Below, in pieces: positions 13,628 to 57,856 of a stretch of 64,000 bases of DNA (the first letter of the stretch is position 1; the number at the start of each line of letters is the position of its first letter). The notes beneath the pieces are model-generated. The model made no database searches and was not told where the DNA came from. It worked only from the letters and a program-made list of their open reading frames with translations. The DNA is from an uncultured Boseongicola sp. (GTDB lineage Bacteria > Actinomycetota > Acidimicrobiia > Spongiisociales > ZC4RG35). The position numbers and the translations under genes were made by a program. The DNA lies in NCBI GenBank assembly GCA_964194555.1, contig CAXMMT010000050.1:5842-69841 (forward strand). The letters run 5' to 3'.

Positions 13628-13700
13628 GGCGGCAACCTAGTGGTCTGTCCCCGGTTGGCGTCGGTGGGCCGTAACCTGTCCTGCGACCCCCCTTTCAACC

Positions 13701-16398: not shown

Positions 16399-17328
16399 AT
16401 GTCACCCGAAGAGCGGTTTCAGGAGATTATCGACGCCGAGGACAAGATCGAGCCCCCGGATTGGATGCCAGACGCCTACCGAAACACCCTCATCCGCCAG
16501 ATCGCACAGCATGCCCACTCGGAGGTGATTGGCATGCAACCAGAGAGCAACTGGATCACCCGGGCCCCGACACTCCATCGCAAAGCGATTCTCATCGCCA
16601 AGGTCCAGGACGAGGCCGGTCACGGGCTCTACCTCTACGCCGCAGCCGAGACCCTCGGAGTCAGACGTGACGAGATGCAGGAGCTCCTTCATCGGGGCAA
16701 GCACAAGTACTCGTCGATCTTCAATTACCCGACACTCAGCTGGGCTGACATGGGGACGATCGGTTGGCTGGTCGACGGCGCCGCCATCACCAACCAGGTG
16801 ATGCTCACCCGCGGTTCCTATGGTCCCTACGCGAGAGCCATGGTGCGGATATGCAAGGAGGAGTCCTTCCATCAGCGTCAGGGATATGAGCTCTTGATCA
16901 GACTCTGTCAGGGCTCATCCAGCCAGAAAGCGATGGCCCAGGACTCCGTCAACCGCTGGTGGTGGCCGGCGCTGATGATGTTCGGGCCCCACGACAGCGA
17001 CTCGACCCACACCGAGCAGTCGATGAAGTGGAAGATCAAGAGGGTTTCCAACGATGACCTTCGTCAGCAGTTCGTCGACATGACGGTTCCCCAGGCCGAC
17101 TATCTCGGTCTGGAGATACCGGACCCCGACCTCAGCTGGAACGAGGAACGGGGTCACCACGACTTCGGTGAGATCGATTGGGAGGAGTTCTGGCGTGTCG
17201 TCAAGGGGAACGGCCCGATGAATCGTGAGCGTGTTGCCCACAAGGTCAAGGCGTGGGATGACGGAGCGTGGGTACGCGAAGCGGCGATGGCATACGCGGA
17301 CAAGAAACTGTCCAGCTCGGCGGCTTAG
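16399..17328 (+). CDS. paaA: 1,2-phenylacetyl-CoA epoxidase subunit A
   Basis: Di-iron oxygenase subunit similarity (..[10 protein letters not shown].., ..EESFHQRQG..), followed by paaBCDE. ATG 16399 is preferred over the longer ORF that overlaps the CDF gene. Confidence 0.9.
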
Positions 17329-17340
17329 GAGGATCGACTG

Positions 17341-17685
17341 ATGAGTTACGACGTTCCCGTTGCCCCGGGGGAGAAGGCGGAGATAGAAGAGACCACAGAG
17401 CTGAGTGGGGAGAGCTGGCCAATGTGGGAGGTGTTTGTAAGGGCGCGTCGCGGCATATCCCACGTCCACATCGGCAGTCTCCATGCGGCCGATGCCGAGA
17501 CGGCGCTGGAAAGTGCCCGTGATGTGTACACCCGACGCGGCGAGGGTGTGAGCGTGTGGGTCGTCCCCAGCACCGAGGTCCATGCCTTCGAGCCGGAAGC
17601 AGCGGCCGACTATGTCGAGGCCAACGAAAAGGTCTACCGCCTGGCCACGACCTATGAGATTCCTGAAGAAGTTGGACAGATGTGA
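17341..17685 (+). CDS. paaB: 1,2-phenylacetyl-CoA epoxidase subunit B
   Basis: PaaB-like protein (WPMWEVFVRARRGISHVHIGSLHA). Operon order supports the call. Confidence 0.9.
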   Translation: MSYDVPVAPGEKAEIEETTELSGESWPMWEVFVRARRGISHVHIGSLHAADAETALESARDVYTRRGEGVSVWVVPSTEVHAFEPEAAADYVEANEKVYRLATTYEIPEEVGQM

Positions 17686-18392
17686 CTATCACAGCGGTCA
17701 CTTCGCTTCTGGCTCACGCCGACGACAACATGGTGCTCGCTCAGCGACTTGGCGAGCTGATCTCCAACGCGCCGGAGTTGGAGATAGATATCGCGCTGGG
17801 TAACACGGCCCTCGACCACCTCGGTGTGGCAAGGGCGCTGTACACCCACGTCGGCAACACCGAGGGGATGGGAAGATCCGAGGACGAGCTCGCAATGTTC
17901 AGAACCGAGCGGGAATACACCAACCTTCTGCTTGTGGAGCAGCCAAACGGCGACTTCGCCCAAACCATGGTGCGTCAGCTCTTCTTCGACGCTTATCAGA
18001 TGGAACTCTGGAGAGACCTTTCGACTTCCAGCGACACGACTCTGGCCGGCATCGCCGCCAGGGCGCTCAAGGAGGCCACCTACCACATGCGATTCTCGTC
18101 AGGATGGGTCACCCGTCTTGGCGACGGTACCGAGGAGTCCCACCGTCGCGCCCAGGATGGAGTCGACGCCCTTTGGCAATACACATCGGAGATGTTTGAG
18201 GATGAGGCGGAGCAGTATCGCCCGGCCTGGACCACCACGATCGAGTCCGTCCTGATCGAGGCCTGCCTCGAGCCTGGGGCCGACCCCTATCAAAGAACGG
18301 GTGGCCGGAGTGGTTTTCACACCGAGCACCTCGGCTTTCTGCTCGCCGAGATGCAGTGGATGCAGCGGAGCTACCCGGATCTGAAATGGTGA
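17682..18392 (+). CDS. paaC: 1,2-phenylacetyl-CoA epoxidase subunit C
   Basis: PaaC-like ferritin-fold subunit. Its start overlaps the paaB stop. Confidence 0.85.
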   Translation: MTITAVTSLLAHADDNMVLAQRLGELISNAPELEIDIALGNTALDHLGVARALYTHVGNTEGMGRSEDELAMFRTEREYTNLLLVEQPNGDFAQTMVRQLFFDAYQMELWRDLSTSSDTTLAGIAARALKEATYHMRFSSGWVTRLGDGTEESHRRAQDGVDALWQYTSEMFEDEAEQYRPAWTTTIESVLIEACLEPGADPYQRTGGRSGFHTEHLGFLLAEMQWMQRSYPDLKW

Positions 18393-18853
18393 CGGCAACC
18401 ACGATCGGCATCGTCACCGCCCGGAAGGTGGCCGCGTCGGTGGTTGATCCTGAGATTCCGGTTCTGACGATTGACGATCTGGGGATTCTCAGGTCGGTCG
18501 TGGTAGACGAGGGTCGTGTGATCGTGACCATCACCCCGACCTACTCGGGTTGCCCGGCGATGGGCCAGATGGAGGACGACATCGTCACTGCATTCGAAAG
18601 GATCGGAGTTGAGGGTGTCGAGGTCGTAACCGTTCACTTTCCGGCATGGTCCACCGACTGGATCAGTGAGGATGGTCAGCGCAAGCTGAGGCAATTCGGT
18701 ATCGCACCGGCGGTCTCCGAACAAGACCTGACGTGCCCGCGGTGTGACGCCTCCAAGCCGACAATGATCGCCCGTTTCGGTTCTACTGCATGTAAGGCCC
18801 TGATGGTGTGTTCGTCCTGTGGTGAGCCCTTCGATTACTTCAAACCGTTCTGA
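18386..18853 (+). CDS. paaD: phenylacetate-CoA oxygenase subunit PaaD (PaaJ)
   Basis: DUF59-like N-terminus and a C-terminal Cys cluster (CPRC...CSSCGEPF). ATG 18386 overlaps the paaC stop. Confidence 0.85.
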   Translation: MVTATTIGIVTARKVAASVVDPEIPVLTIDDLGILRSVVVDEGRVIVTITPTYSGCPAMGQMEDDIVTAFERIGVEGVEVVTVHFPAWSTDWISEDGQRKLRQFGIAPAVSEQDLTCPRCDASKPTMIARFGSTACKALMVCSSCGEPFDYFKPF

Positions 18854-19926
18854 TGGGTGATCTCGAGTTTCATCGGTTGCGTGTCACCGAGGTGAGCCCC
18901 CTCACCGACGACTCCGTGACAGTCAGCCTCGATGTTCCCGACGAGTTATCCGAGACGTTCGCCTACCTGCCTGGACAGCACGTAACCGTGCGGGCCTTCA
19001 TCGATGGCGAGGATGTTCGCAGGTCGTATTCGATCTGTGCAAACGCCAACTCGGGAAAGTTGCGTGTTGGTGTCAAGCGGCTTTCCGGAGGAGCGTTCAG
19101 CACCTACGCGACTTCTGATCTCGAGGCCGGCAACATGCTCGACGTTATGGCTCCCGTGGGTGAGTTCACCATCGAGATCGATCCGGCCAGCCCTCGTCGG
19201 GCTGTGGCCATTGCGTCTGGCTCCGGCATCACACCTGTGATGTCGCTGATCGCGACCTCCCTGGAGAGTGAGCCACTGTCAAGCTGGACGCTGCTGTTTG
19301 GCAACCGGACAGCAAACAGCATCATGTTCCTCGAGGAATTGGAGGGGCTGAAGGACCGCTACAAGAGTCGATTCCAACTCTTCCACCTGCTCAGCAGGGA
19401 GGGTTCCGACGTGCCCCTTCTCTCCGGTCGGATTGACGAGGAGAAGATGCTGACGATTCATGATCGGCTGTTGGGTGGCGCCCCGGTAGATGGCTGGTAC
19501 CTGTGTGGTCCTTACGAGATGGTGATGATGGCGAAGGAGGCCCTCCAACACCTTGGCGTCTCCCAAGATCGCATTCATGAAGAGCTGTTCTTCGCCGGTC
19601 CTGTCGACCCCACGAAGTTGCCCCCAGAGCCACCACCCGGACAGGGGGCCATCGAACTGACGGTGATCCTCGACGGGCGGGCCGTGGACACCCGAATGTC
19701 TTCCGAGACATCAATACTCGATGCGGCGCTTCGGGTACGCCCCGAGCTGCCCTTCTCCTGCAAGGGCGGGATGTGCGCAACATGCAAGGGGAGGATCGAG
19801 GATGGCAAAGTGACGATGACCAAGAACTACGCCTTGATCGATGAAGAGGTGGAGGCCGGATATGTGCTCACCTGTCAGTCGCACCCGGTGTCTGACCGGG
19901 TTGTGGTTCGTTACGACCACCGCTAG
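18853..19926 (+). CDS. paaE: phenylacetate-CoA oxygenase reductase subunit (FAD/NAD-binding plus 2Fe-2S ferredoxin domain)
   Basis: FNR-like RSYS motif and a C-terminal plant-type ferredoxin cluster (CKGGMCATCKG...C). Confidence 0.9.
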   Translation: MGDLEFHRLRVTEVSPLTDDSVTVSLDVPDELSETFAYLPGQHVTVRAFIDGEDVRRSYSICANANSGKLRVGVKRLSGGAFSTYATSDLEAGNMLDVMAPVGEFTIEIDPASPRRAVAIASGSGITPVMSLIATSLESEPLSSWTLLFGNRTANSIMFLEELEGLKDRYKSRFQLFHLLSREGSDVPLLSGRIDEEKMLTIHDRLLGGAPVDGWYLCGPYEMVMMAKEALQHLGVSQDRIHEELFFAGPVDPTKLPPEPPPGQGAIELTVILDGRAVDTRMSSETSILDAALRVRPELPFSCKGGMCATCKGRIEDGKVTMTKNYALIDEEVEAGYVLTCQSHPVSDRVVVRYDHR

Positions 19927-20517
19927 GTGTTTGGGCTCCCAGTGATCTCGGTCCGCAATACCCGGTCGGACGTGATTCACGCGGCAGGTCGTCTGTTCGC
20001 CGAGCGCGGTTATCACGGCACCTCGATGCGGGACCTCGGCAAGGAACTCGGGTTGCTCGGCTCCTCGCTCTACTCCCATGTCGAATCCAAGCAGGATCTT
20101 CTGGTCGAGGTGGTCGAAGAGGGGGCACGGCTCTTCGAAGCGGCGGCTGAGCAAGCCAGAGCGACACCGGGGACCGCTCGCGATCGGCTGGCCGCTCTTG
20201 TGGCCGGGCATGTCAAGGTGGTTCTCGACAATGTCAATGTCGCCCGAACATTCCTCAACGAGGCTCGCATGCTCGATACCGAGCATCGTGAGCGAATAGT
20301 CGAGGCCAGGGATCATTACGAAGGGGTGTTCCGGTTGGTTTTGGCCGATGGGGCGGGTGATGGGTCGTTTCGTTCCGACATCGATCCCAAGACGAGCTCG
20401 ATCTACATACTCTCGGTGCTCAACGCACTGGAGCGCTGGTATGACCCGGCTGGGCCACTGGGCCGGGAGGAACTGATTGCCGACCTGACCACCTTCCTCA
20501 TTGCCGGGATTGGGTGA
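19927..20517 (+). CDS. TetR/AcrR family transcriptional regulator, probable paa regulator
   Basis: N-terminal TetR HTH (..AAGRLFAERGYHGTSMRDLGKELGLLGSSLYSHVESKQDLL..). It directly follows paaE. Confidence 0.8.
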   Translation: MFGLPVISVRNTRSDVIHAAGRLFAERGYHGTSMRDLGKELGLLGSSLYSHVESKQDLLVEVVEEGARLFEAAAEQARATPGTARDRLAALVAGHVKVVLDNVNVARTFLNEARMLDTEHRERIVEARDHYEGVFRLVLADGAGDGSFRSDIDPKTSSIYILSVLNALERWYDPAGPLGREELIADLTTFLIAGIG

Positions 20518-20584
20518 CGTCCACCCCCTTTCTATCCGGTGTTAGTGGACTGGTAGGGTTCAGCCACATTCGAACAGGAGACTC

Positions 20585-20851
20585 ATGGTTGGAAGACCCG
20601 GAATGAGAAGAACCGCTCGTCGCACATCACGGCGCACATCACGCCGGGTGAGTCGGCGACAATCGGGAACGCAGGAAGCTGCCGCACCGCCACCCGAGCA
20701 GGCACCGCCGCCCCCTCCTCCCGAGCCGGTCGCTCCCCTTCCCCAGGAGGAGGACAAGTACGCCAAGCTCAAGGAGGCCAAGGAGCTTCTCGACGCAGGC
20801 GTCCTCACCGAGGAAGAGTTCGCCGCCGAGAAGGCCAAGATCCTCGGCTGA
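20585..20851 (+). CDS. small SHOCT-domain protein with Arg-rich and Pro-rich N-terminal regions
   Basis: The C-terminal ..LKEAKELLDAGVLTEEEFAAEKAKILG matches the SHOCT pattern. The N-terminus contains the repeat RRTSRRTSRRVSRR. Confidence 0.55.
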   Translation: MVGRPGMRRTARRTSRRTSRRVSRRQSGTQEAAAPPPEQAPPPPPPEPVAPLPQEEDKYAKLKEAKELLDAGVLTEEEFAAEKAKILG

Positions 20852-20896
20852 CGACCGAGAGCCCGTCGCGCCCACCGCAGCGATCGAGGGTGAAGC

Positions 20897-22087
20897 ATGA
20901 AAATAGTCCTCGCCTATTCCGGTGGTCTCGACACATCGGTGATCCTCGCCTGGCTCAGGGAGGAATACGACGCAGAGGTGATCGCTTACACCGCCGATGT
21001 CGGTCAGGGCGCTGAGGTCGCCGAGGCTGCGAAGAAAGCCCTCGCCACCGGGGCCGTCGCCGGAGTTGTCGACGACCTCAAGGAGTCATTTGTCAACGAT
21101 GCCGTTTTCCCAGCGATCCGGGCAGCCGCGGTGTACGAGAACGAGTACCTTCTCGGCACCTCCCTGGCGCGTCCGATCATCAGCCAGGGACTCGTCGCAA
21201 CGGCCCGCGAATACGGGGCCGACGCCATCAGCCACGGAGCCACAGGCAAGGGGAACGATCAGGTTCGGTTTGAGCTTTCGACTGCGGCTCTTGCTCCTGA
21301 CCTGAAAACGATCGCCCCCTGGCGCGAATGGGATCTCGCCGGGCGAGGCGATCTGATGGCATACGCCGAGGCCAGGGGTATCTCGGTTCCGGTGACGAGG
21401 GAAGCGCCATACTCAATGGACGCCAATCTCTTTCATATCTCCTATGAGGGTGGTGTCCTCGAGGATCCGTGGGCCGACCCGCCGGCCGATATGTTCCGGA
21501 TGACGGTTGATCCCGTGGACGCTCCCGATGACCCTCGAGAGCTGACCATCGGATTCGAGTCCGGCACCCCGGTATCGATAGACGGGAAGAGTATGGGGCC
21601 GGTCGAGCTTCTCGCCGGTCTCAACGAGATCGGCGGCCGTCACGGCATCGGCCGTGTCGACATTGTCGAGAACCGGTTCGTGGGCATCAAGAGCCGTGGT
21701 GTTTACGAGACGCCCGGAGGAACGATTCTTCATATTGGCCGCCGGGCAGTGGAGTCGATCGCACTCGACCGTGAGGTGCTTCACCTGCGTGACGATCTGA
21801 TCACCCGTTATGCCAGGATCGTCTACAACGGGTTCTGGTTCTCGCCGGAGCGGATAGCTCTTCAGGAGACGATGGACTCGATTCAGGAGCCGGTGACAGG
21901 TGAAGCGCGTCTGGTCCTCTACAAAGGATCGGCTCGGGTCGTGGGGCGTAGGTCGCCGAACAGTCTGTACGACTCCGAAGAGGCCACCTTCGAAGCCGAT
22001 GATGTCTATCGCCAGGCAGATGCCGAAGGGTTCATCAGTCTCAATGCCCTGAGGATTCGTGGTTACGGGACGGGATCGAAGTCGTGA
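20897..22087 (+). CDS. argG: argininosuccinate synthase
   Basis: N-terminal ATP motif AYSGGLDTS and full-length similarity. Confidence 0.95.
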
Positions 22088-23433
22088 CTCTGTGGGGCGG
22101 CAGATTCGAGGGCTCGCTTTCAGAGGCGATGTGGGGATTCACCACAGACGAATCTGATCGCCGTCTTCTCCAGGTGGATATCGAAGGCTCAATCGCACAC
22201 GTCGACATGCTCGGCGCCACCGAAATCATCGAGCCCGAAGAGGCGCAGGCTCTTGCCGCCGGGCTCCGGTCGATTCTCGCCGAGGCGGAAGCCGGCCGGT
22301 TTGCGTTCCAGACAACAGACGAGGATGTTCACACCGCGGTCGAGCGCCGGTTGGGCGAGATAGTCGGTGAGATCGCCGGCAAGCTGCATACCGGACGTTC
22401 GCGAAACGATCAGGTTGCACTCGATCTCCGTCTCTATCTGACCCGGGCCGGGGATCGGCGCATACAACAGCTCCATCAACTCGCCGGCACCATCACCCGG
22501 ATAGCCGAATCCCACGCCGAAACGGTTGTTCCGTCGTACACCCATTTGCAGCAAGCCCAACCGACCACGCTGGGTCATCATCTTCTTGCGTACGCATGGA
22601 TGGCCCTGAGAGGAGGGGAGAGATTCACCGAGGCGGTAAAGAGGATCGCAGTTTCCCCTCTCGGAGCCGGAGCCTCGTCCGGATCCTCTCTTCCTCTCGA
22701 CCGTGACGCCGTTGCCAGACATCTCGGACTCGACGGTGTGATTCCCAACTCCCTCGATGCGGTGGGGTCGAGGGACTTTGTCTCCGAGTATGTGTTCTGC
22801 TGTGCCCAGTCGATGATCGAGCTGTCGAGACTCGCCGAGGAGATAGTTCTCTGGTCAACCAGGGAGTTCGGATGGGTGTCTCTCAGCGATGAGGTGAGTA
22901 CCGGCTCGTCGGCCCTGCCTCATAAGCGAAACCCTGACATCGCGGAGTTGATCCGGGGGCGCGCCGGCATCGTGGTCGGTGATATGACCGCGATCCTCTC
23001 GCTGCAAAAGGCCCTGCCACTCGCCTACAACCGTGATCTCCAGGAAGACAAGAGGATCGTCTTTCATGCCGACGACACACTGGCATCGGGATTGGGGGCC
23101 ATGGTGGAATTGCTCGGCGGACTCGAGTTTCATCCTCCCGCGCCTGGTCCAGACACAGTGAGTCTCGACATTGCCGAAACCCTGGTGCGTCGTGGAGTTC
23201 CGTTTCGCGAGGCTCACAGGCTGGTGGGAGAGTTGGTGAGTCTGCTCGAATCCCGCGGGAAGACTCTGTCAGACGCGACGCTCGACGAACTCGACGAAGT
23301 AGATCAACGGTTTGCCGAGACAGATCTCGATCATCTCGACCCGACCGACTCAGTCAGGGCGCGAGCAACATCGGGGTCGGGTAATCCTGACTCTGTGCGT
23401 GCTCAGATCGCCGAGATCCGGCGACGCATTTGA
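22084..23433 (+). CDS. argH: argininosuccinate lyase
   Basis: Fumarase/lyase signature [11 protein letters not shown]. Its start overlaps the argG stop. Confidence 0.95.
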
Positions 23434-23436
23434 GGT

Positions 23437-24465
23437 TCAGCCACCGTTAGGCGACTCTGCCTCTACGGTCCATGTTCCGTGTGACCTGATGAGACTCTCC
23501 AAGTCGCCTTCGCCACGTTGCTCCGTCTCCTCGTCGATCTGTGCGTTGAGCTCTGCGTCGTAGGTGGGACGTTCGACATTACGGAAGATACCGAGCGGCG
23601 TCGGCCCATACGGTCCGTGAGACAGACGACTCAGTGCGAAGGCGATAGCCGGATCTGGCCTCGTCTCGTCGTGAACCAGGATTGCGATGGGGTCGACCGA
23701 AGACGACTCCACGACTGTGGCGTGCCCCTCACGCATGACTACCGCCTTGGATCCGCCGTCGAAGACGATCGGCTTTCCGTGTTGTAGATCGATGCGATTG
23801 TGAACCCGCTCTTCTTTTCCGGTGACCTGGATGAACGCTTTGTCATTGAAGACGTTGCAATTCTGGTAGATCTCGATGAAGGCCGACCCCTCGTGCTCGT
23901 ATGCGGCCTTGAGCATTGCCTGAGTGTGATTGCGATCCATATCGAGCGTGCGAGCTACGAAAGTCGCTTCGGCTCCAAGCGCAAGCGACACCGGGTTGAA
24001 CGGATAGTCGATAGACCCGAATGGGGATGACTTGGTCGTCTTGCCAACTTCCGACGTGGGGGAGTACTGACCCTTGGTCAACCCGTATATCTGGTTGTTG
24101 AACAAGAGGATCTTCAGATTGACGTTTCGGCGGAGGACGTGGATCAAATGGTTGCCTCCGATGGAAAGGGCGTCGCCATCACCGGTGATCACCCACACGG
24201 ATAGGTCGGGCCGAGTCGTCGCCACGCCTGTTGCGATCGCCGGAGCTCTTCCGTGGATCGAGTGCATTCCGAAGGTCTTCATGTAGTAGGGGAACCTCGA
24301 GGCGCAACCGATACCCGAGATGAAGACGAACTCCTCTCGTGGCCGGCCCAAGGCAGCGACGAACTGTTGCACCGAAGCGAGGATCGTGTAGTCACCACAC
24401 CCGGGACACCACCGCACCTCCTGGTCCGTTTGAAAGTCAGCCCTTGTGTACGAACGGGTAGTCAT
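23437..24465 (-). CDS. korB: 2-oxoacid:ferredoxin oxidoreductase subunit beta
   Basis: TPP-binding beta subunit (..WCPGCGDY.., ..GDGDALSIGGNH..), translationally coupled to the alpha subunit. Confidence 0.9.
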   Translation of the reverse strand: MTTRSYTRADFQTDQEVRWCPGCGDYTILASVQQFVAALGRPREEFVFISGIGCASRFPYYMKTFGMHSIHGRAPAIATGVATTRPDLSVWVITGDGDALSIGGNHLIHVLRRNVNLKILLFNNQIYGLTKGQYSPTSEVGKTTKSSPFGSIDYPFNPVSLALGAEATFVARTLDMDRNHTQAMLKAAYEHEGSAFIEIYQNCNVFNDKAFIQVTGKEERVHNRIDLQHGKPIVFDGGSKAVVMREGHATVVESSSVDPIAILVHDETRPDPAIAFALSRLSHGPYGPTPLGIFRNVERPTYDAELNAQIDEETEQRGEGDLESLIRSHGTWTVEAESPNGG

Positions 24466-26333
24466 TTGACCATCTCCAGGATCTTCTCTGATATCTCTGA
24501 CACCTTGAACGGCTCAGCGGCGACCTTGTTCAGACCGACGGCATCGATGAGAAACTCGGCACGGATCATCTTCGACAACTGTCCGGTGTTGAGCTCAGGG
24601 ATGAGGATCCTGTCGTATGAGCGGAGCAAGTCGCCAAGATTGTTGGGCAGGGGGTTGAGATGTCTCAAGTGCAGACAGGCCACCTTGTGCCCTTCGAGAC
24701 GAACCCGCCGGGCGGCGGCGCGAATCGCCCCGAAGGTCGATCCCCATCCGAGGACCAGGATTTCGGCGTCCTCTTCACCATCGATCTCCAACTGGGGGAT
24801 GTCGTTGGCGATGTTGGCCACTTTCCACGCTCTGGTGTCGGTCATCAATTGGTGGTTGTTCGGGTCGTAGGAGACATCACCGGAAAGGGCATCCTTCTCC
24901 AGTCCACCCACCCGATGCTCCAGTCCGGCCGTTCCAGGAATCGCCCACGGCCGGGCGAAGGTGTCGACATTTCGCATGTAAGGGAGGAAGGTCCCATCGG
25001 GCCCATTCGGATGAGCGGCGTACTCGATGTCGATCTCGGGAATCGAGTCGAGGTCCGGCAGACGCCATGGCTCGGAGGCGTTAGCAACAGAGTTGTCGCT
25101 CAACAAGATCACCGGCGTCATGTATTTGACCGCGATCCGAGCGGCCTCGATTGCCATGAGGAAGGCTTCCGACGGGGTGGCTATGGCTATGACGGGGAGG
25201 GGGGACTCACCATGGCGACCGTAGAGTGAAAACAGGAGATCGGACTGTTCCGGTTTGGTCGGAAGTCCCGTCGAAGGACCACCGCGTTGCACATTGATGA
25301 CGATCATCGGAAGCTCGAGCATGAAGGCAAGGGAGATGCCTTCACTCTTCAAGGCGATCCCTGGGCCCGAGGAGCCTGTAACCGCGAGGCTGCCGGCAAA
25401 CGCGGCGCCGATGGCCGCGCCTACAGCGGCAATTTCGTCCTCGGCCTGGAAAGTCCTGACTCCGAAACTCTTGTGTCGAGAAAGCTCGTGGAGAATGTCG
25501 GATGCCGGGGTGATGGGGTAAGAGCCGTAGAACAGCGGGAGTCCCGATTTCCGGGAGGCTGCGATCAAACCCCAGGCAAGAGCGGTGTTGCCGTTCACGT
25601 TGGTGTAGGTGCCCGGCTCGAGGGCGGCAGGCTTCACTTCGAAGGTGTTCTTGGTGGCCTCGGTGGTGATGCCGAAGTTGTACCCGGCCTGAAATGCGGC
25701 GATGTTGGCCGCGGCCACTTCCTCCTTCTTTCCAAACTTCTTTTCGATCCAGTCGATCGTCGGTTCTGTGGGCCGATGAAAAAGCCATGCCATCAGGCCG
25801 AGGGCGAAGAGGTTCTTGGAGCGAAGGACATTGCGCCCCTTTACGCCGGTGTCCTTGACGGCCTCCTTTGTGAGGTCGTCCATCGGAACCTTGATCACCC
25901 TGTATCCCTTGAGGGAATCATCATCGAGAGGATTCGATTGGTAACCGGCCTTTGCCAGATTGCGCTCATCGAAAGCGTCACTGTTGACGATGAGTGTCCC
26001 ACCTTGACGCAGATCCTTGAGGTTGGTCATCAGGGCCGCCGGATTCATCGCAACCAGACAGTCGGGTTCATCCCCGGCTGTGAGGATGTCGAAGTCTGCG
26101 ATCTGAACCTGGAAACTGGAGACTCCCGGAAGGGTTCCGGCGGGGGCTCTTATCTCCGCGGGGAAATTCGGAAGGGTTGCCAGGTCATTCCCGAACAGAG
26201 CCGACGCGTCCGTGAACCTGTTACCTGCCAACTGCATCCCGTCGCCTGAGTCGCCGGCGAATCGGACCACGAGTTTGTCGATTTCCTCGGCCGGAGTTGG
26301 CGATGCGTCTGCTGTGGCGGTGTCGTCGGCCAC
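24462..26333 (-). CDS. korA: 2-oxoacid:ferredoxin oxidoreductase subunit alpha
   Basis: 623-aa fused gamma/alpha-type subunit, overlapping the korB start. Confidence 0.9.
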   Translation of the reverse strand: MADDTATADASPTPAEEIDKLVVRFAGDSGDGMQLAGNRFTDASALFGNDLATLPNFPAEIRAPAGTLPGVSSFQVQIADFDILTAGDEPDCLVAMNPAALMTNLKDLRQGGTLIVNSDAFDERNLAKAGYQSNPLDDDSLKGYRVIKVPMDDLTKEAVKDTGVKGRNVLRSKNLFALGLMAWLFHRPTEPTIDWIEKKFGKKEEVAAANIAAFQAGYNFGITTEATKNTFEVKPAALEPGTYTNVNGNTALAWGLIAASRKSGLPLFYGSYPITPASDILHELSRHKSFGVRTFQAEDEIAAVGAAIGAAFAGSLAVTGSSGPGIALKSEGISLAFMLELPMIVINVQRGGPSTGLPTKPEQSDLLFSLYGRHGESPLPVIAIATPSEAFLMAIEAARIAVKYMTPVILLSDNSVANASEPWRLPDLDSIPEIDIEYAAHPNGPDGTFLPYMRNVDTFARPWAIPGTAGLEHRVGGLEKDALSGDVSYDPNNHQLMTDTRAWKVANIANDIPQLEIDGEEDAEILVLGWGSTFGAIRAAARRVRLEGHKVACLHLRHLNPLPNNLGDLLRSYDRILIPELNTGQLSKMIRAEFLIDAVGLNKVAAEPFKVSEISEKILEMVK

Positions 26334-36147: not shown

Positions 36148-36990
36148 CTACCGCCGGGGGCGACCCCGCCATGTGGTGTAGACGTGTTTCATCATCGCCA
36201 GCGAGTAGGCGGGCAGAGTGTGCAGTTCTTCTTGATCTGGCGGCACATGAGGCTCATCTCGAGGCTCGGTGTCTCCGAGATTTCGCACAAGGATATCCAC
36301 TGAGTTCGATTCCTCGTCTTCGTCTTCGGCTGGGATGTCCTCATCAAGCTCATCTATCTCCGGCTCAGAAACCGGATCGACGACAATCGGAAGCCGTATC
36401 GCAGAGGTCTTGGCCTCGACGAGCTCGCTCCGCATCTCCGATACTCTCTCTCTGAGGAAAACTGTCTCGGTTTCGGCCTTGGCCGCTCTCTCCCGGGCCT
36501 CTGCGAGCTGCTGACCCGCCTCATGGAGATTTCCCAGTTGTATCAGCATCTTGTTCCACGCGTCGAGAGGGACCAGCATCGTCCCCTCGGGGATTTCCGG
36601 CTCCGCTGTGTCTTCTTCGATGGCTTCCGGTTCTCGTGGCTCTGGCTCCCGTTCTGGCTCCCGCTCTTGTGTGTCGATGATCGGTGGGGGCGTGGGCGTC
36701 ACAAGTTTGCGTCCGAGCCTTTCCGCACGCTGCTGGATTCCTTTGAGCGACACCATCCGCAACTGACCGACGGGCGTCTCCTCCAGATAGGTGGGTACGG
36801 AGTCGCGTCGAGCCCACTTGCGAAGTGTGGAGACAGGAATTCCGGTGAGATCGGTAGCTTCGCGCAACGTGATCCAGTCGACGTCGTCGCGATCGACGTT
36901 GTCGGACCGCTGCTCATGCCGTCCCTTTGTGGCCTTTGATGAGCGAAGTGCCTCAGATTCCCAGAGAAAGGCGGTGTCGCTGTCAGCCAT
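36148..36990 (-). CDS. HTH (MerR/excisionase-like) DNA-binding protein with acidic low-complexity and coiled-coil regions
   Basis: HTH at ITLREATDLTGIPVSTLRKWARRD, then an EREPEREPEPREPE repeat and a predicted coiled coil. ATG 36990 was chosen because the longer ORF reads through repeat copy A. Confidence 0.55.
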   Translation of the reverse strand: MADSDTAFLWESEALRSSKATKGRHEQRSDNVDRDDVDWITLREATDLTGIPVSTLRKWARRDSVPTYLEETPVGQLRMVSLKGIQQRAERLGRKLVTPTPPPIIDTQEREPEREPEPREPEAIEEDTAEPEIPEGTMLVPLDAWNKMLIQLGNLHEAGQQLAEARERAAKAETETVFLRERVSEMRSELVEAKTSAIRLPIVVDPVSEPEIDELDEDIPAEDEDEESNSVDILVRNLGDTEPRDEPHVPPDQEELHTLPAYSLAMMKHVYTTWRGRPRR

Positions 36991-37015
36991 GGCCCGGATC
37001 ATACGGGTAGCTCCC

Positions 37016-37181
37016 TGGTGGTGTGTCGCCCAAATAATCACCGCATCTCTCCGGCCCTTGACGCCCCTGGCTTCATCCTCCGCCTCAACGCATCTCGCCG
37101 ATGCGCCTTCGTTGTGCGTCCTGGCCAGATGACGCCGAGGACTCGGACATATGCTGGCGCTATTTCCACGACACACCACTA
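37016..37181 (+). repeat. structured intergenic repeat, copy A (divergent copy)
   Basis: About three quarters identical to copies B and C. Terminal arms tggtggtgtgtcg / cgacacaccacta pair, and the apical hairpin is cgcatc-tcgcc-gatgcg. Confidence 0.8.
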
Positions 37182-37214
37182 GGTTGGCGGCCGAGGAGGC
37201 CCCTGCAGCATCTG

Positions 37215-44462: not shown

Positions 44463-45380
44463 CTATCTTTCCAGCCACACGACGATCAGGTCGCCAACCC
44501 AGTCCGGGTCCCTCATGTTGTTGTGAAGGGCACCCTCGACTTCTTCCAACAACGACTCCGATCCAGAGTCGGCGAGTGCCAGGTGAAAGTCGGTGGCGAA
44601 CCGGCTGTCGACGATCCCATCGCTACCGCCGTACATGATCAGACTGACGAGAAGGGTGTTTTCATCGGTGAGTCCTTGTGGGTTGCCGGCGAGCCAGACA
44701 TCGGGCTCGGCGCTGGGCCCGGCACCGAAGAACGGCAGCATGATGATGCCGAGACGGTTGACATCGTATGGACCGGCCAGCCCTACGAATCTGTCAGGTA
44801 GCCCTGTGCCCGGCACCGGGCAGTCCCCGGCGTATTCATTACCGGTGAGCGCCACAATCGCTGATATGTGGCCACCGGCCGAGTGCCCGATCAACGCCAC
44901 TGTCCCGTCCGAATCCGGATGAGCTGCGGCATATCTGACTGCACAGGCCACATCATCGACAGCCTGAGGGAACCCGGGGCTCTCGTTGGAGAGCTTGTAT
45001 GGGGTGTTCACCGTCAAGAACCCTTCATCGGTCAAGAAGGCCGCCAGCGAGTGCATGATCGAGACGTCTCCACCGATCCAGCCGCCACCGTGGACCAGTA
45101 CCACCGCAGGGAACGGTCCTTCTCCGTTCGGGATCTTCACGTCGGCCCCGATGTCGGGCAGTTCCGGGCGTGTTGTCGTTGTCGGTGGCAACGTGGTTGT
45201 TGTCGTGGGCGGCAGTGTTGTCGTTGTCGTCGAGGACGTGCTGGTGGTCGACTCAGAAGTGGAAGACGACACCGCTAGCTCAGTGGTTGTGACGACTTCC
45301 CCGCTCCCGGGCGAGCACGCCGCCAGGATGATGGCCGTTGCTAAGAAAGAAGCGAAGCGGCTGCCGCGTCTACGTGCCAT
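44463..45380 (-). CDS. secreted alpha/beta hydrolase (esterase/lipase-like) lipoprotein
   Basis: Lipobox (ILAAC), a Thr/Pro-rich linker, oxyanion HGGGW and the nucleophile elbow GHSAGG. Confidence 0.8.
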   Translation of the reverse strand: MARRRGSRFASFLATAIILAACSPGSGEVVTTTELAVSSSTSESTTSTSSTTTTTLPPTTTTTLPPTTTTRPELPDIGADVKIPNGEGPFPAVVLVHGGGWIGGDVSIMHSLAAFLTDEGFLTVNTPYKLSNESPGFPQAVDDVACAVRYAAAHPDSDGTVALIGHSAGGHISAIVALTGNEYAGDCPVPGTGLPDRFVGLAGPYDVNRLGIIMLPFFGAGPSAEPDVWLAGNPQGLTDENTLLVSLIMYGGSDGIVDSRFATDFHLALADSGSESLLEEVEGALHNNMRDPDWVGDLIVVWLER

Positions 45381-46018: not shown

Positions 46019-46049
46019 CGCACGGACGGTACCTGCCTGCTCTAATGCT

Positions 46050-46208
46050 CTGTCGCCCAAATAGCTACGCGGTCTCACCGGCCCTCGACGCCCCCGGCGG
46101 CGTCCTCCGCCTTGACGCAGCTAAGGCCGCGCCTTCGTTGTGCGTCCTTGCCAGATGACGCCGATGACTCGGTGACACCGCGGCATCAATTGAGCGACAG
46201 ACCACTAG
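46050..46208 (+). repeat. structured intergenic repeat, copy B
   Basis: Differs from copy C at only 4 positions over ~155 nt. The 5' terminal arm is replaced, and the 3' end ...gcgacagaccactag is intact. Confidence 0.85.
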
Positions 46209-49673: not shown

Positions 49674-49750
49674 TGCTCTGGCCACCGCAGCGACCGTGGG
49701 CGTGCTTATGATCGGCGGGCTCAGGTGCCCCCCAACGCAAATACGATGAT

Positions 49751-49860
49751 GTTTCTGCGGACAGATGACCCCGCTCGCGGCGTCCTCGTCCTCGACGCAC
49801 CGCACCGGGTGCGTCTTCGTCCTGCGTCCTGGCGAGGCGTCGCCCCTGTCTCACCGAAAC
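49751..49860 (+). repeat. structured intergenic repeat, copy D (degenerate, core only)
   Basis: The core gcggcgtcctc..cctcgacgca[hairpin]gcgtcttcgt..tgcgtcctgg is alignable to copies A-C. It has its own closing stem gtttc/gaaac and apical hairpin gacgcac-cgcaccgg-gtgcgtc. Confidence 0.5.
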
Positions 49861-50463
49861 ATGCGACCATACTTACGTTGGAGAGCACTTAGCCGAGGAG
49901 GCGATATCTCCGTTCCGAATGCGTTGGCGCTGGCTCGGATCGCCATGGTCGTGCCGATCATGGCCTTCACGCGGGCCGACAGGATCGACAACCACTTTGT
50001 CATCGCGGCAGGGATTTTCGCGATCGCGGCGTTTACAGATTTCCTCGACGGCTACCTGGCGCGCCGCTATTCGGAGGAGAGTGTTCTCGGTGGCTTCCTC
50101 GACACCACGGCCGACAAGATCCTTGTCACCGGCACGCTCCTCGCCCTCGTTTCGGTCGGCAGGGTCTCCATCTGGCCTGCCGCCATCCTCATCTTCAGGG
50201 AGTTCGCGGTGATGGCCCTGCGGGGTGTTGTCGCCCAGCGAGGTGGACTGATCAAACCCTCGACCTGGGGAAAGATCAAGACGGTGGCCCAGTTCCTTGC
50301 CATCTTCCTTGCATTCGTCCGTCTCTCGGAACCATGGGGACCCTGGTACTTGGACCAGTGGGCGATGCTCTTCGCGGTGATCGCCACGCTCGGGTCGGCG
50401 TCGGGGTACATGGTCGCGTTCTGGCACACCGTCCGAACGGAGCCAACCGAAGTCAAGACGTGA
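49861..50463 (+). CDS. pgsA: CDP-alcohol phosphatidyltransferase (PgsA-like)
   Basis: CDP-alcohol motif D(F)LDGYLAR...G..LD..ADK (TDFLDGYLARR...FLDTTADK). The start at ATG 49861 is assumed. Confidence 0.8.
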   Translation: MRPYLRWRALSRGGDISVPNALALARIAMVVPIMAFTRADRIDNHFVIAAGIFAIAAFTDFLDGYLARRYSEESVLGGFLDTTADKILVTGTLLALVSVGRVSIWPAAILIFREFAVMALRGVVAQRGGLIKPSTWGKIKTVAQFLAIFLAFVRLSEPWGPWYLDQWAMLFAVIATLGSASGYMVAFWHTVRTEPTEVKT

Positions 50464-57689: not shown

Positions 57690-57856
57690 CTAGTGGTCCG
57701 TCGCCCAAATAGCTACGCGGTCTCACCGGCCCTCGACGCCCCTGGCGGCGTCCTCCGCCTCGACGCAGCTAAGGCTGCGCCTTCGTTGTGTGTCCTTGCC
57801 AGATGACGCCGATGACTCGGTGACACCGCGGCATCAATTGAGCGACAGACCACTAG
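57690..57856 (+). repeat. structured intergenic repeat, copy C (most complete copy)
   Basis: The terminal arms ctagtggtccgtcgc / gcgacagaccactag pair at 14 of 15 positions, and the inner arms gcggtctcaccg / cggtgacaccgc at 11 of 12. The apical hairpin is cgcagc-taag-gctgcg. Confidence 0.85.

Follow-up and report, generated by a model that had tools for sequence, protein, structure and literature searches.

An intergenic repeat of uncultured Acidimicrobiia with IS630-family ends and a full-length, strand-asymmetric hairpin

The 64,000-nt stretch of contig CAXMMT010000050.1 analysed here (the window), which originates from a marine-sediment metagenome, contains four copies, A to D, of a non-coding intergenic repeat of about 160 nt, located next to rpiB, pgl, an alpha/beta hydrolase gene, an FGGY kinase gene, pgsA, mfd and a PPIase lipoprotein gene (Table 1). 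All four copies lie on the + strand, as described by a first-pass annotation of this DNA; A, B and C were recovered by a repeat search and all four by nhmmer. Their + orientation is designated P, and its reverse complement, corresponding to the - strand of the window, is designated F. L numbers denote fetched loci of metagenome-assembled genomes (MAGs) or metagenome contigs, and X numbers (X1, X4) denote marine-sediment metagenome runs.

Table 1. Location of the repeat copies and related features in the window (TIR, terminal inverted repeat).
Feature	Position	Strand	Element proper and duplicated bases	Setting
Copy A	37015-37182	+	37018-37179; right TA 37180-37181	between a - strand helix-turn-helix (HTH) gene (start ~36990-37002) and rpiB (+)
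Copy B	46042-46208	+	46045-46205; TA at 46043-46044 and 46206-46207	fills the gap between divergent pgl (start 46018, -) and an alpha/beta hydrolase gene (start 46218, +)
Copy C	57690-57856	+	GTG...CAC 57693-57853, 161 nt; TA at 57691-57692 and 57854-57855, within C-TA-G	between the mfd stop (57631) and a PPIase lipoprotein gene (start ~57892)
Copy D	49722-49891	+	49725-49888, 164 nt; ends GTGCCCCCCAACG...CGTTGGAGAGCAC	between an FGGY kinase gene and pgsA
Solo terminal repeat CTAGTGGTCTGTCCC	13637-13651	+	15-mer, 1 mismatch to the TIR consensus	upstream of an ABC-F gene
Vacant target	19923-19926		single CTAG	its TAG serves as stop of the gene upstream

Copies B and C are closely alike, with 96% identity in the repeat search, which also links A to both. 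The number of differences between them, given earlier as four over about 155 nt, is 7 of 167 positions: three in the left terminus, which is degenerate in copy B (CTAATGC in place of CTAGTGG), and four in the interior. Copy A shares 73.5-75.3% identity with B and C, close to the three quarters first estimated; it represents another sublineage with the same TIR type, and its closest relative is L079 (94% identity). An nhmmer profile of A, B and C recovers these three copies at E-values of 1e-50 to 1e-56 and copy D at 4e-9, and nothing beyond A-D within the window. Copy D had been taken for a remnant retaining the core only. It is, however, matched from end to end by a covariance model derived from F-strand sequences (model positions 1-167, 109.4 bits); the scores of the other copies are 186.5 bits for C, on the - strand, 174.3 bits for B and 154 bits for A. 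Copy D is 88-90% identical to L077, L057 and L039 and is a full-length member of a separate subfamily, in which the outer stems are different but self-complementary.

The absence of a conserved open reading frame (ORF), already noted in the first-pass annotation, holds in the wider family: at most 57 of 103 copies keep any one frame open. A search with the Rfam covariance models yielded only a tRNA at gathering scores in the window and no match to copy C at E≤10, and no sigma-70-like promoters were found in copies B and C. The terminal-arm match upstream of the ABC-F gene, previously described as 14 nt long and as a possible solo remnant, extends over 15 nt. It has no partner arm and, according to nhmmer, no core beside it, and probably derives from a copy that decayed or was deleted. 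In a shuffle test of the 15-mer TIR, seven matches with at most three mismatches were obtained versus 1.8 expected.

Beyond the window, a scan with a degenerate 23-nt core pattern, covering one genome per species, detected at least 116 loci from at least about 59 assemblies, nearly all of them MAGs labelled Acidimicrobiia or Actinomycetota; a single MAG contributes at least 14 loci. A homologue was confirmed by nhmmer in essentially every locus listed, and the same core pattern gave no match in viral contigs. About 100 copies are matched end to end by the covariance model, with 78-186 bits on F versus 30-55 bits on P, including those, copy D among them, for which nhmmer had matched the middle part only. 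The self-complementary outer stems differ in the other subfamilies, while the length from GTG to CAC (159-164 nt) and the end motif are constant; the G+C content of the element is 57-73%. In four marine-sediment metagenomes the sequencing depth rises about 100-fold from the flanks to the element (in X1 from 13-18 to about 2,280). Some of the bins with core matches (L014, L030/L071/L099, L081, L031, L047, L062/L082) are labelled Lutisporaceae, Gammaproteobacteria, Planctomycetota or Acidobacteriota. L014 is a chance match to the pattern and lacks the element; the others contain genuine copies and would represent either mis-binned contigs or transfer.

Several copies carry internal insertions (L083:5819-6076, with about 90 nt; L030:2541-2720; L142 and L189), and a 12-nt GACCGGAGGCGG insertion is common to three copies from different samples. 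At L099:6681-6740 and at L093:227-240 and 395-408 the right terminus with about 30 nt of flank is tandemly duplicated.

The borders of the element are sharply defined. Full-length homologues from MAGs (26 of the 26 shown; 27 were counted) start with a CTAGTGG-like and end with a CCACTAG-like sequence amid unrelated flanks, and the end motif across subfamilies is yTA/GTG...CAC/TAg. The TIRs read CTAGTGGTCYGTCGC and GCGACAGACCACTAG, and in the set of 103 copies helix 1 of the model shows 92.7% pairing. In the subfamily type of copies A, B and C, TA is duplicated within C-TA-G, and in most subfamilies within YTAR. Because CTAG is palindromic, this sequence alone cannot distinguish a duplication from the end of a repeat; the targets TTAG, TTAA and ATAG also occur, and a TA duplication fits them without extra mutation. 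Members of the copy D subfamily are flanked by 3-nt sequences, TAA..TAA (L077, L097, L053) or TTA..TTA (L057, L104), always in the form C-TWA-G, and since these flanks are direct and not inverted, they represent target duplications.

Four pairs of filled and empty sites were identified, and the empty sites keep one copy of the duplication. A contig of X4 skips positions 57690-57852 of copy C (163 nt) with a 4-nt overlap, CTAG, and a contig of X1 joins 46041 to 46205, thus skipping 163 nt of copy B with the overlap CTA. The empty site of copy D, found in an X4 strain, reads GATCGGC+AAGCT+TTAGCC with a single TTA, the net difference of 167 nt being equal to 164+3. The fourth pair is reciprocal: L113, syntenic with window positions 16570-24523 (~8 kb, ~85% identity), contains a 168-nt copy (L113:3412-3579) exactly at the vacant CTAG of the window.

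A second scan, this time of metagenome contigs, used only the terminal repeat (CTAGTGGTCTGTCGCNNNAWT) and returned 120 loci, with 59 TIR hits in core-bearing elements and 67 outside them. Some of the latter are paired at distances of 1152-1158 bp (L134 146-1303, L212 68-1223, L220 2560-3716, L219 4149-5303, L120 and L144), delimiting elements of about 1156 bp. Each of the four examined contains one long ORF, of 370 aa in L134, L212 and L220 and of 341 aa in L219. The L134 product matches the NCBIfam model NF033545 (IS630 family transposase) with 238.6 bits (cutoff 100, E 1e-70), and the three 370-aa products contain the Pfam domain DDE_3 (75-83 bits, cutoff 28.6) together with HTH_29/32/23. 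All six of these insertion sequences (ISs) have CTAG on both flanks, and the family assignment agrees in both the transposase model, scored above its cutoff, and the duplication of TA in CTAG. Positions 1-26 of the short repeat are 92% identical to the left end of the IS and its last 23 nt are 96% identical to the right end, which makes P the orientation of the transposase gene. No similarity between the middle of the repeat and the interior of the IS was found past the terminal 15-26 nt; a match to the C-terminal coding region noticed by eye was not significant. The transposase ORF (L134:191-1303, L212:111-1223, L220:2560-3672) reads through the right terminal repeat and ends with ...SAT(D/V)H. 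Its TAG stop codon consists of the duplicated TA and the flanking G, and is thus supplied by the target.

Other TIR pairs delimit further elements with these ends. Two pairs are 953 bp apart (L180:117-1069, L234:2972-3924) and others 616-923 bp. The 953-bp elements contain a passenger gene, encoding a 200-aa metal-binding protein (TIGR03086 / MDMPI_N), and no transposase; they would be mobile insertion cassettes. L131:665-703, L130, L173, L178, L216, L163 and L214 contain mini hairpins of 39-82 bp, in which the two ends are joined by a few bases between CTAG flanks, and one of the same make is located at L019:6572-6604. Either these are the family's smallest derivatives, or they arose by internal deletion.

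The repeats of the window are 161-164 nt long, lack coding capacity, preserve a hairpin, carry TIRs with target duplications, exist in many copies that are polymorphic between strains, and share their termini with an autonomous IS encoding an IS630 transposase. They are very probably transposable elements of the miniature inverted-repeat type (MITEs), i.e., non-autonomous DNA transposons, with IS630-family ends, moved in trans. The novelty proposed in the first-pass annotation, which had named a match to an IS-derived family in advance as evidence to the contrary, falls with this match. Each copy comprises two IS ends of about 15-26 nt, whose left-right order is that of the IS, and an unrelated non-coding middle of about 110 nt, the whole forming one long imperfect palindrome. 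A transposase supplied in trans would bind the TIRs, excise the element and insert it at TA in C/T-TA-G/A with duplication of the TA; in the sister subfamily of copy D, TAA or TTA would be duplicated within C-TWA-G. The enzyme would be the 370-aa DDE transposase of the ~1156-bp IS with the same ends, and we infer that it moves the present copies and resides in the same genomes. IS630 is described, in Tenzen and Ohtsubo (1991) as cited in PMC2170065, as inserting at TA with a preference for CTAG and duplicating the TA.

The hairpin extends over the entire element. Copy C folds on the + strand into one long imperfect hairpin, as first reported (-82.9 kcal/mol, z -6.7); the - strand folds far better (-107.2 kcal/mol, z -9.9), and there the segment that had been described as conserved and unpaired pairs with GACGCCCCTGGC. 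In an alignment of 103 copies fitted to the covariance model, and thus leaning towards structure, 92.6% of the cells are paired versus 71.7% after shuffling, both sides have changed in 40 of 50 pairs, and the covariation score is 0.54, compared to 0.10 or less with partners slid by 1-3 columns. An independent MAFFT alignment of 29 copies shows compensatory changes in 30 of 50 pairs. F is the more stable strand in 104 of 105 copies (mean -96.7 vs -74.1 kcal/mol), and in 103 of 105 with DNA energy parameters; on F there are 591 G·U cells and 63 A·C cells. Mutational strand bias is an unlikely source of the G·U excess, as deamination of the non-template or leading strand would, given the 2:1 orientation relative to genes, place G·U on the other strand; in addition, the + strand is C-rich (37% C vs 28% G).

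The innermost part of most copies has, on F, GGAC opposite GGAC (G·A/A·G between G-C pairs), with one flanking pair being G-C in 65 copies and C-G in 35. Half of this inner motif was fixed by the core search pattern, which inflates the apparent conservation of the core: among 49 copies ascertained by their TIRs, the exact core pattern is present in 22 and about 14 have a different innermost sequence. For the same two reasons, the idea that four AGGACG repeats form a universal protein-binding array is weakened. The hairpin, the length, the mid-stem sequences and the strand asymmetry remain as general features. In copy C, the apical hairpin CGCAGC-TAAG-GCTGCG is followed by CCTTCGTTGT (57764-57789, +) and has a terminator-like score on the + strand only; the apical hairpin of copy B has no such score. 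A search for RNA evidence found no transcriptome run; of six further runs of unspecified kind, the four inspected consist of contigs of 33-62 kb, resemble DNA and give no strand information.

The placement of the copies relative to genes was determined with a custom codon log-odds caller, which replaced a GC3-based one that miscalled antisense shadow ORFs, and with which the window's Pfam-supported genes (pgl, hydrolase, rpiB, FGGY kinase, pgsA, mfd and PPIase) are recovered. None of 123 copies lies within a called gene; 51 are located between tandem, 21 between divergent and 16 between convergent genes, and 35 at contig edges. In many cases a copy extends 2-3 nt into the upstream stop codon, often sharing its TAG, presumably because CTAG and TA seldom occur in these G+C-rich genomes other than in stop codons and spacers. 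Within the window, copies A and B lie between divergent genes and C and D between tandem + strand genes. The reported position 0-60 nt upstream of a + strand start codon is correct (8-36 nt), but results from short intergenic spacers and target choice, and copies A and B are also only 13-24 nt from the start of a - strand gene. The downstream genes are functionally unrelated, as stated initially for the window and found across contexts as well. A bias in orientation relative to genes does exist, P running with the neighbouring gene in 57 cases and against it in 28 (tandem and edge copies; binomial p 0.002), but at about 2:1 it is not absolute: 16 of the 51 tandem copies have the opposite orientation, and orientation is mixed within the single contigs L009, L116 and L107. 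In two thirds of cases F is antisense to the genes next to it, and selection acting on host mRNAs is thus an unlikely source of the strand asymmetry.

Two side observations concern genes of the window. The ORF upstream of copy A (36148-36990, -) has an HTH-like start, ITLREATDLTGIPVSTLRKWARRD, and no Pfam hit, and its codon-position G+C pattern shifts 5' of 36520, suggesting two genes or a frameshift. Within the - strand alpha/beta hydrolase gene 44463-45380, positions 45165-45250 contain short direct repeats of the GTTGTCGTTGTCG type.

Several points weigh against assigning all the copies to an ordinary IS630-type MITE family. A plain cut-and-paste MITE needs only its ends, which leaves unexplained the covariation over the whole 160 nt, the constant length and the fact that on one strand G·U exceeds A·C 9:1. 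The left duplication is degenerate in copy A, where TA is mutated to TG (37016-37017), and in copy D, where the 3-nt duplication TTA is present on the right (49889-49891) and its left counterpart is unrecognisable (CAG, 49722-49724). Searches for inverted-repeat pairs revealed no full-length IS in the window or in 757 kb of MAG DNA (116 loci), and the IS is known from unbinned metagenome contigs only. The copy D subfamily duplicates 3 nt, TAA or TTA, in place of the 2-nt TA of IS630; elements of the IS630/Tc1-mariner group are not known to make 3-nt duplications, and no transposase for this TWA-duplicating subfamily was found. The context statistics rest on a simple gene caller validated on the window only.

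The conserved fold could alternatively indicate that the repeat is a structured RNA functional in the host, such as a small RNA, a stabiliser of mRNA ends, a site for RNase III, or a terminator or attenuator whose effect depends on orientation; it would be compatible with a MITE origin, with mobility merely explaining the spread. This is unlikely overall, despite several features in its favour: the strong conservation of the hairpin with its compensatory changes, the nearly invariable advantage of one strand and its excess of G·U over A·C, the middle part common to subfamilies with different termini, the orientation bias relative to genes, and the T-rich run that follows the apical hairpin on the + strand only. 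Long stem-loop transcripts are, in addition, formed by other bacterial MITEs, and Correia RNA has been proposed to be a target of RNase III (PMC2229807). The better-folding strand is, however, antisense to most neighbouring genes, the asymmetry persists under DNA parameters, and the genes on the flanks have no relation to one another. Close strains differ in their insertions, as would be expected if these were neutral or mildly harmful, and the alternative innermost part in 14 of the 49 TIR-ascertained copies, along with the inflating effect of the first scan's pattern, reduces the weight of core conservation. The first-pass annotation leaned towards a cis-regulatory RNA of the + strand, either a 5' leader or riboswitch-like, that would control the + strand genes downstream. 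The co-orientation of the four window copies close to + strand starts and the presence of CCUCC-like anti-Shine-Dalgarno runs on that strand are consistent with it. It is nevertheless extremely improbable: downstream genes are unrelated in the window and over 88 contexts, copies occur between convergent genes and in opposite orientation between tandem ones, near-identical strains differ in the presence of the element, and the + strand is the worse-folding one. Neither an Rfam match nor a ligand-pocket-like unpaired region was found, the supposedly unpaired segment being paired on the other strand. The mixed contexts, target duplications, strain polymorphism and IS630 termini likewise speak against an RNA leader or small RNA acting upstream of genes.

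Strand-specific folding that persists with DNA parameters, an element that is entirely one hairpin, and a tetranucleotide conserved at both ends would also suit transposition as a single strand, either as a REPIN moved by RAYT or as a palindrome-associated element of the IS200/IS605 type with a Y1 transposase. REPINs are described in PMC3116915 as hairpin-forming mobile doublets. REP units are short palindromes with a head of the GTAG/CGTC type. The termini of the present element are true inverted repeats, the same as those of a DDE (IS630) element, and its single arms are not short palindromes. Insertion duplicates TA or TWA, and Y1 transposases (IS200/IS605) are not known to make duplications. 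Copy orientation within contigs is mixed, and no Y1 or RAYT gene turned up, although no systematic search for one was made; this origin is accordingly very improbable. Integron attC sites, which share with the repeat conserved ends, a variable paired middle and recombination as a single strand, were rejected as well, since R'/R'' core sites are absent, the neighbours are housekeeping genes rather than cassettes, and duplications are present.

The closest parallel is the pair RUP / IS630-Spn1 of Streptococcus pneumoniae, in which small non-coding intergenic repeats match the TIRs of an IS630-family element and insert at TA (PMC2229807). Mobilisation of RUP in trans by IS630-Spn1 was inferred from matching ends, by the same reasoning as here (PMC2229807). 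RUP is 107 bp long and A+T-rich, has 9 bp of contiguous TIR pairing and is confined to one species, whereas the present element, of 161-164 nt and 57-73% G+C, occurs in at least 59 species-level MAG assemblies, maintains a full-length hairpin by compensatory changes and has many stem subfamilies, one of them with 3-nt duplications. The terminus of the Correia element (CREE/NEMIS) of Neisseria also begins with TAGTGG. Correia elements are 104-157 bp long, have TIRs and a TA duplication, are polymorphic between strains and lie near gene starts, and their transcripts, a feature of that family, fold into long stem-loops (PMC3184786, PMC2229807); processing by RNase III is reported for them. Unlike the present element, they lack an identified cognate transposase and contain promoters and an IHF site. 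The partner IS resembles IS630 of Shigella sonnei and ISY100 in its size of about 1.16 kb, its single transposase gene, the combination of DDE_3 with an N-terminal HTH, and insertion at TA in CTAG; in contrast to them, its ORF crosses the right TIR, and only the non-autonomous derivative is present in the window. The TWA duplication of the copy D subfamily is typical not of IS630 but of IS5 (IS1031 group) or PIF/Harbinger (PMC2516522). The enterobacterial repeats ERIC/IRU and YPAL are likewise intergenic imperfect palindromes (~127-168 bp) with filled and empty sites, for which RNA folding has been discussed (PMC2229807). They are unrelated in sequence, neither has a demonstrated IS partner, ERIC has 7-bp TIRs, and the termini of YPAL lack TA and its duplications are variable.

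Overall, the window copies appear to be MITEs of an ordinary kind. No description of this family was found, nor any paper linking Acidimicrobiia to MITEs, and the strand-specific fold alone may be new. As a best guess, element-level selection maintains the palindrome, and host selection would remove insertions in which the stronger-folding strand is the one that is transcribed or that lies exposed as template of the lagging strand, leaving the 2:1 bias; such a combination could cover both the fold and the bias. A further possibility, rather doubtful at present, is that the ~110-nt middle is a module selected as a single strand, either RNA or single-stranded DNA (ssDNA), antisense to the IS orientation. 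This suggestion is based on the constant length, the paired structure with its purine-rich internal loops (GGAC facing GGAC), and the sharing of the middle part by subfamilies with different terminal repeats and duplication lengths. Such a module could either ride several transposase systems or serve a step of transposition not known for IS630-type elements.

The analysis provides a name and a model for a repeat that is very abundant in uncultured Acidimicrobiia of marine sediments and soils, and that could be wrongly taken for a regulatory RNA. The element breaks short-read assemblies, with Logan contigs ending at its borders where depth jumps about 100-fold, and its filled and empty sites are ready markers of strain-level variation. 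Together with its partner it documents, for Actinomycetota, a system of the IS630 type in which the whole range of derivatives occurs: the IS, cassettes with passenger genes, 160-nt MITEs and mini hairpins of 40-80 nt. If the strand-specific fold reflects no RNA or ssDNA step, the repeat is a routine MITE; if it does reflect one, it bears on how cut-and-paste MITEs reach high copy numbers.

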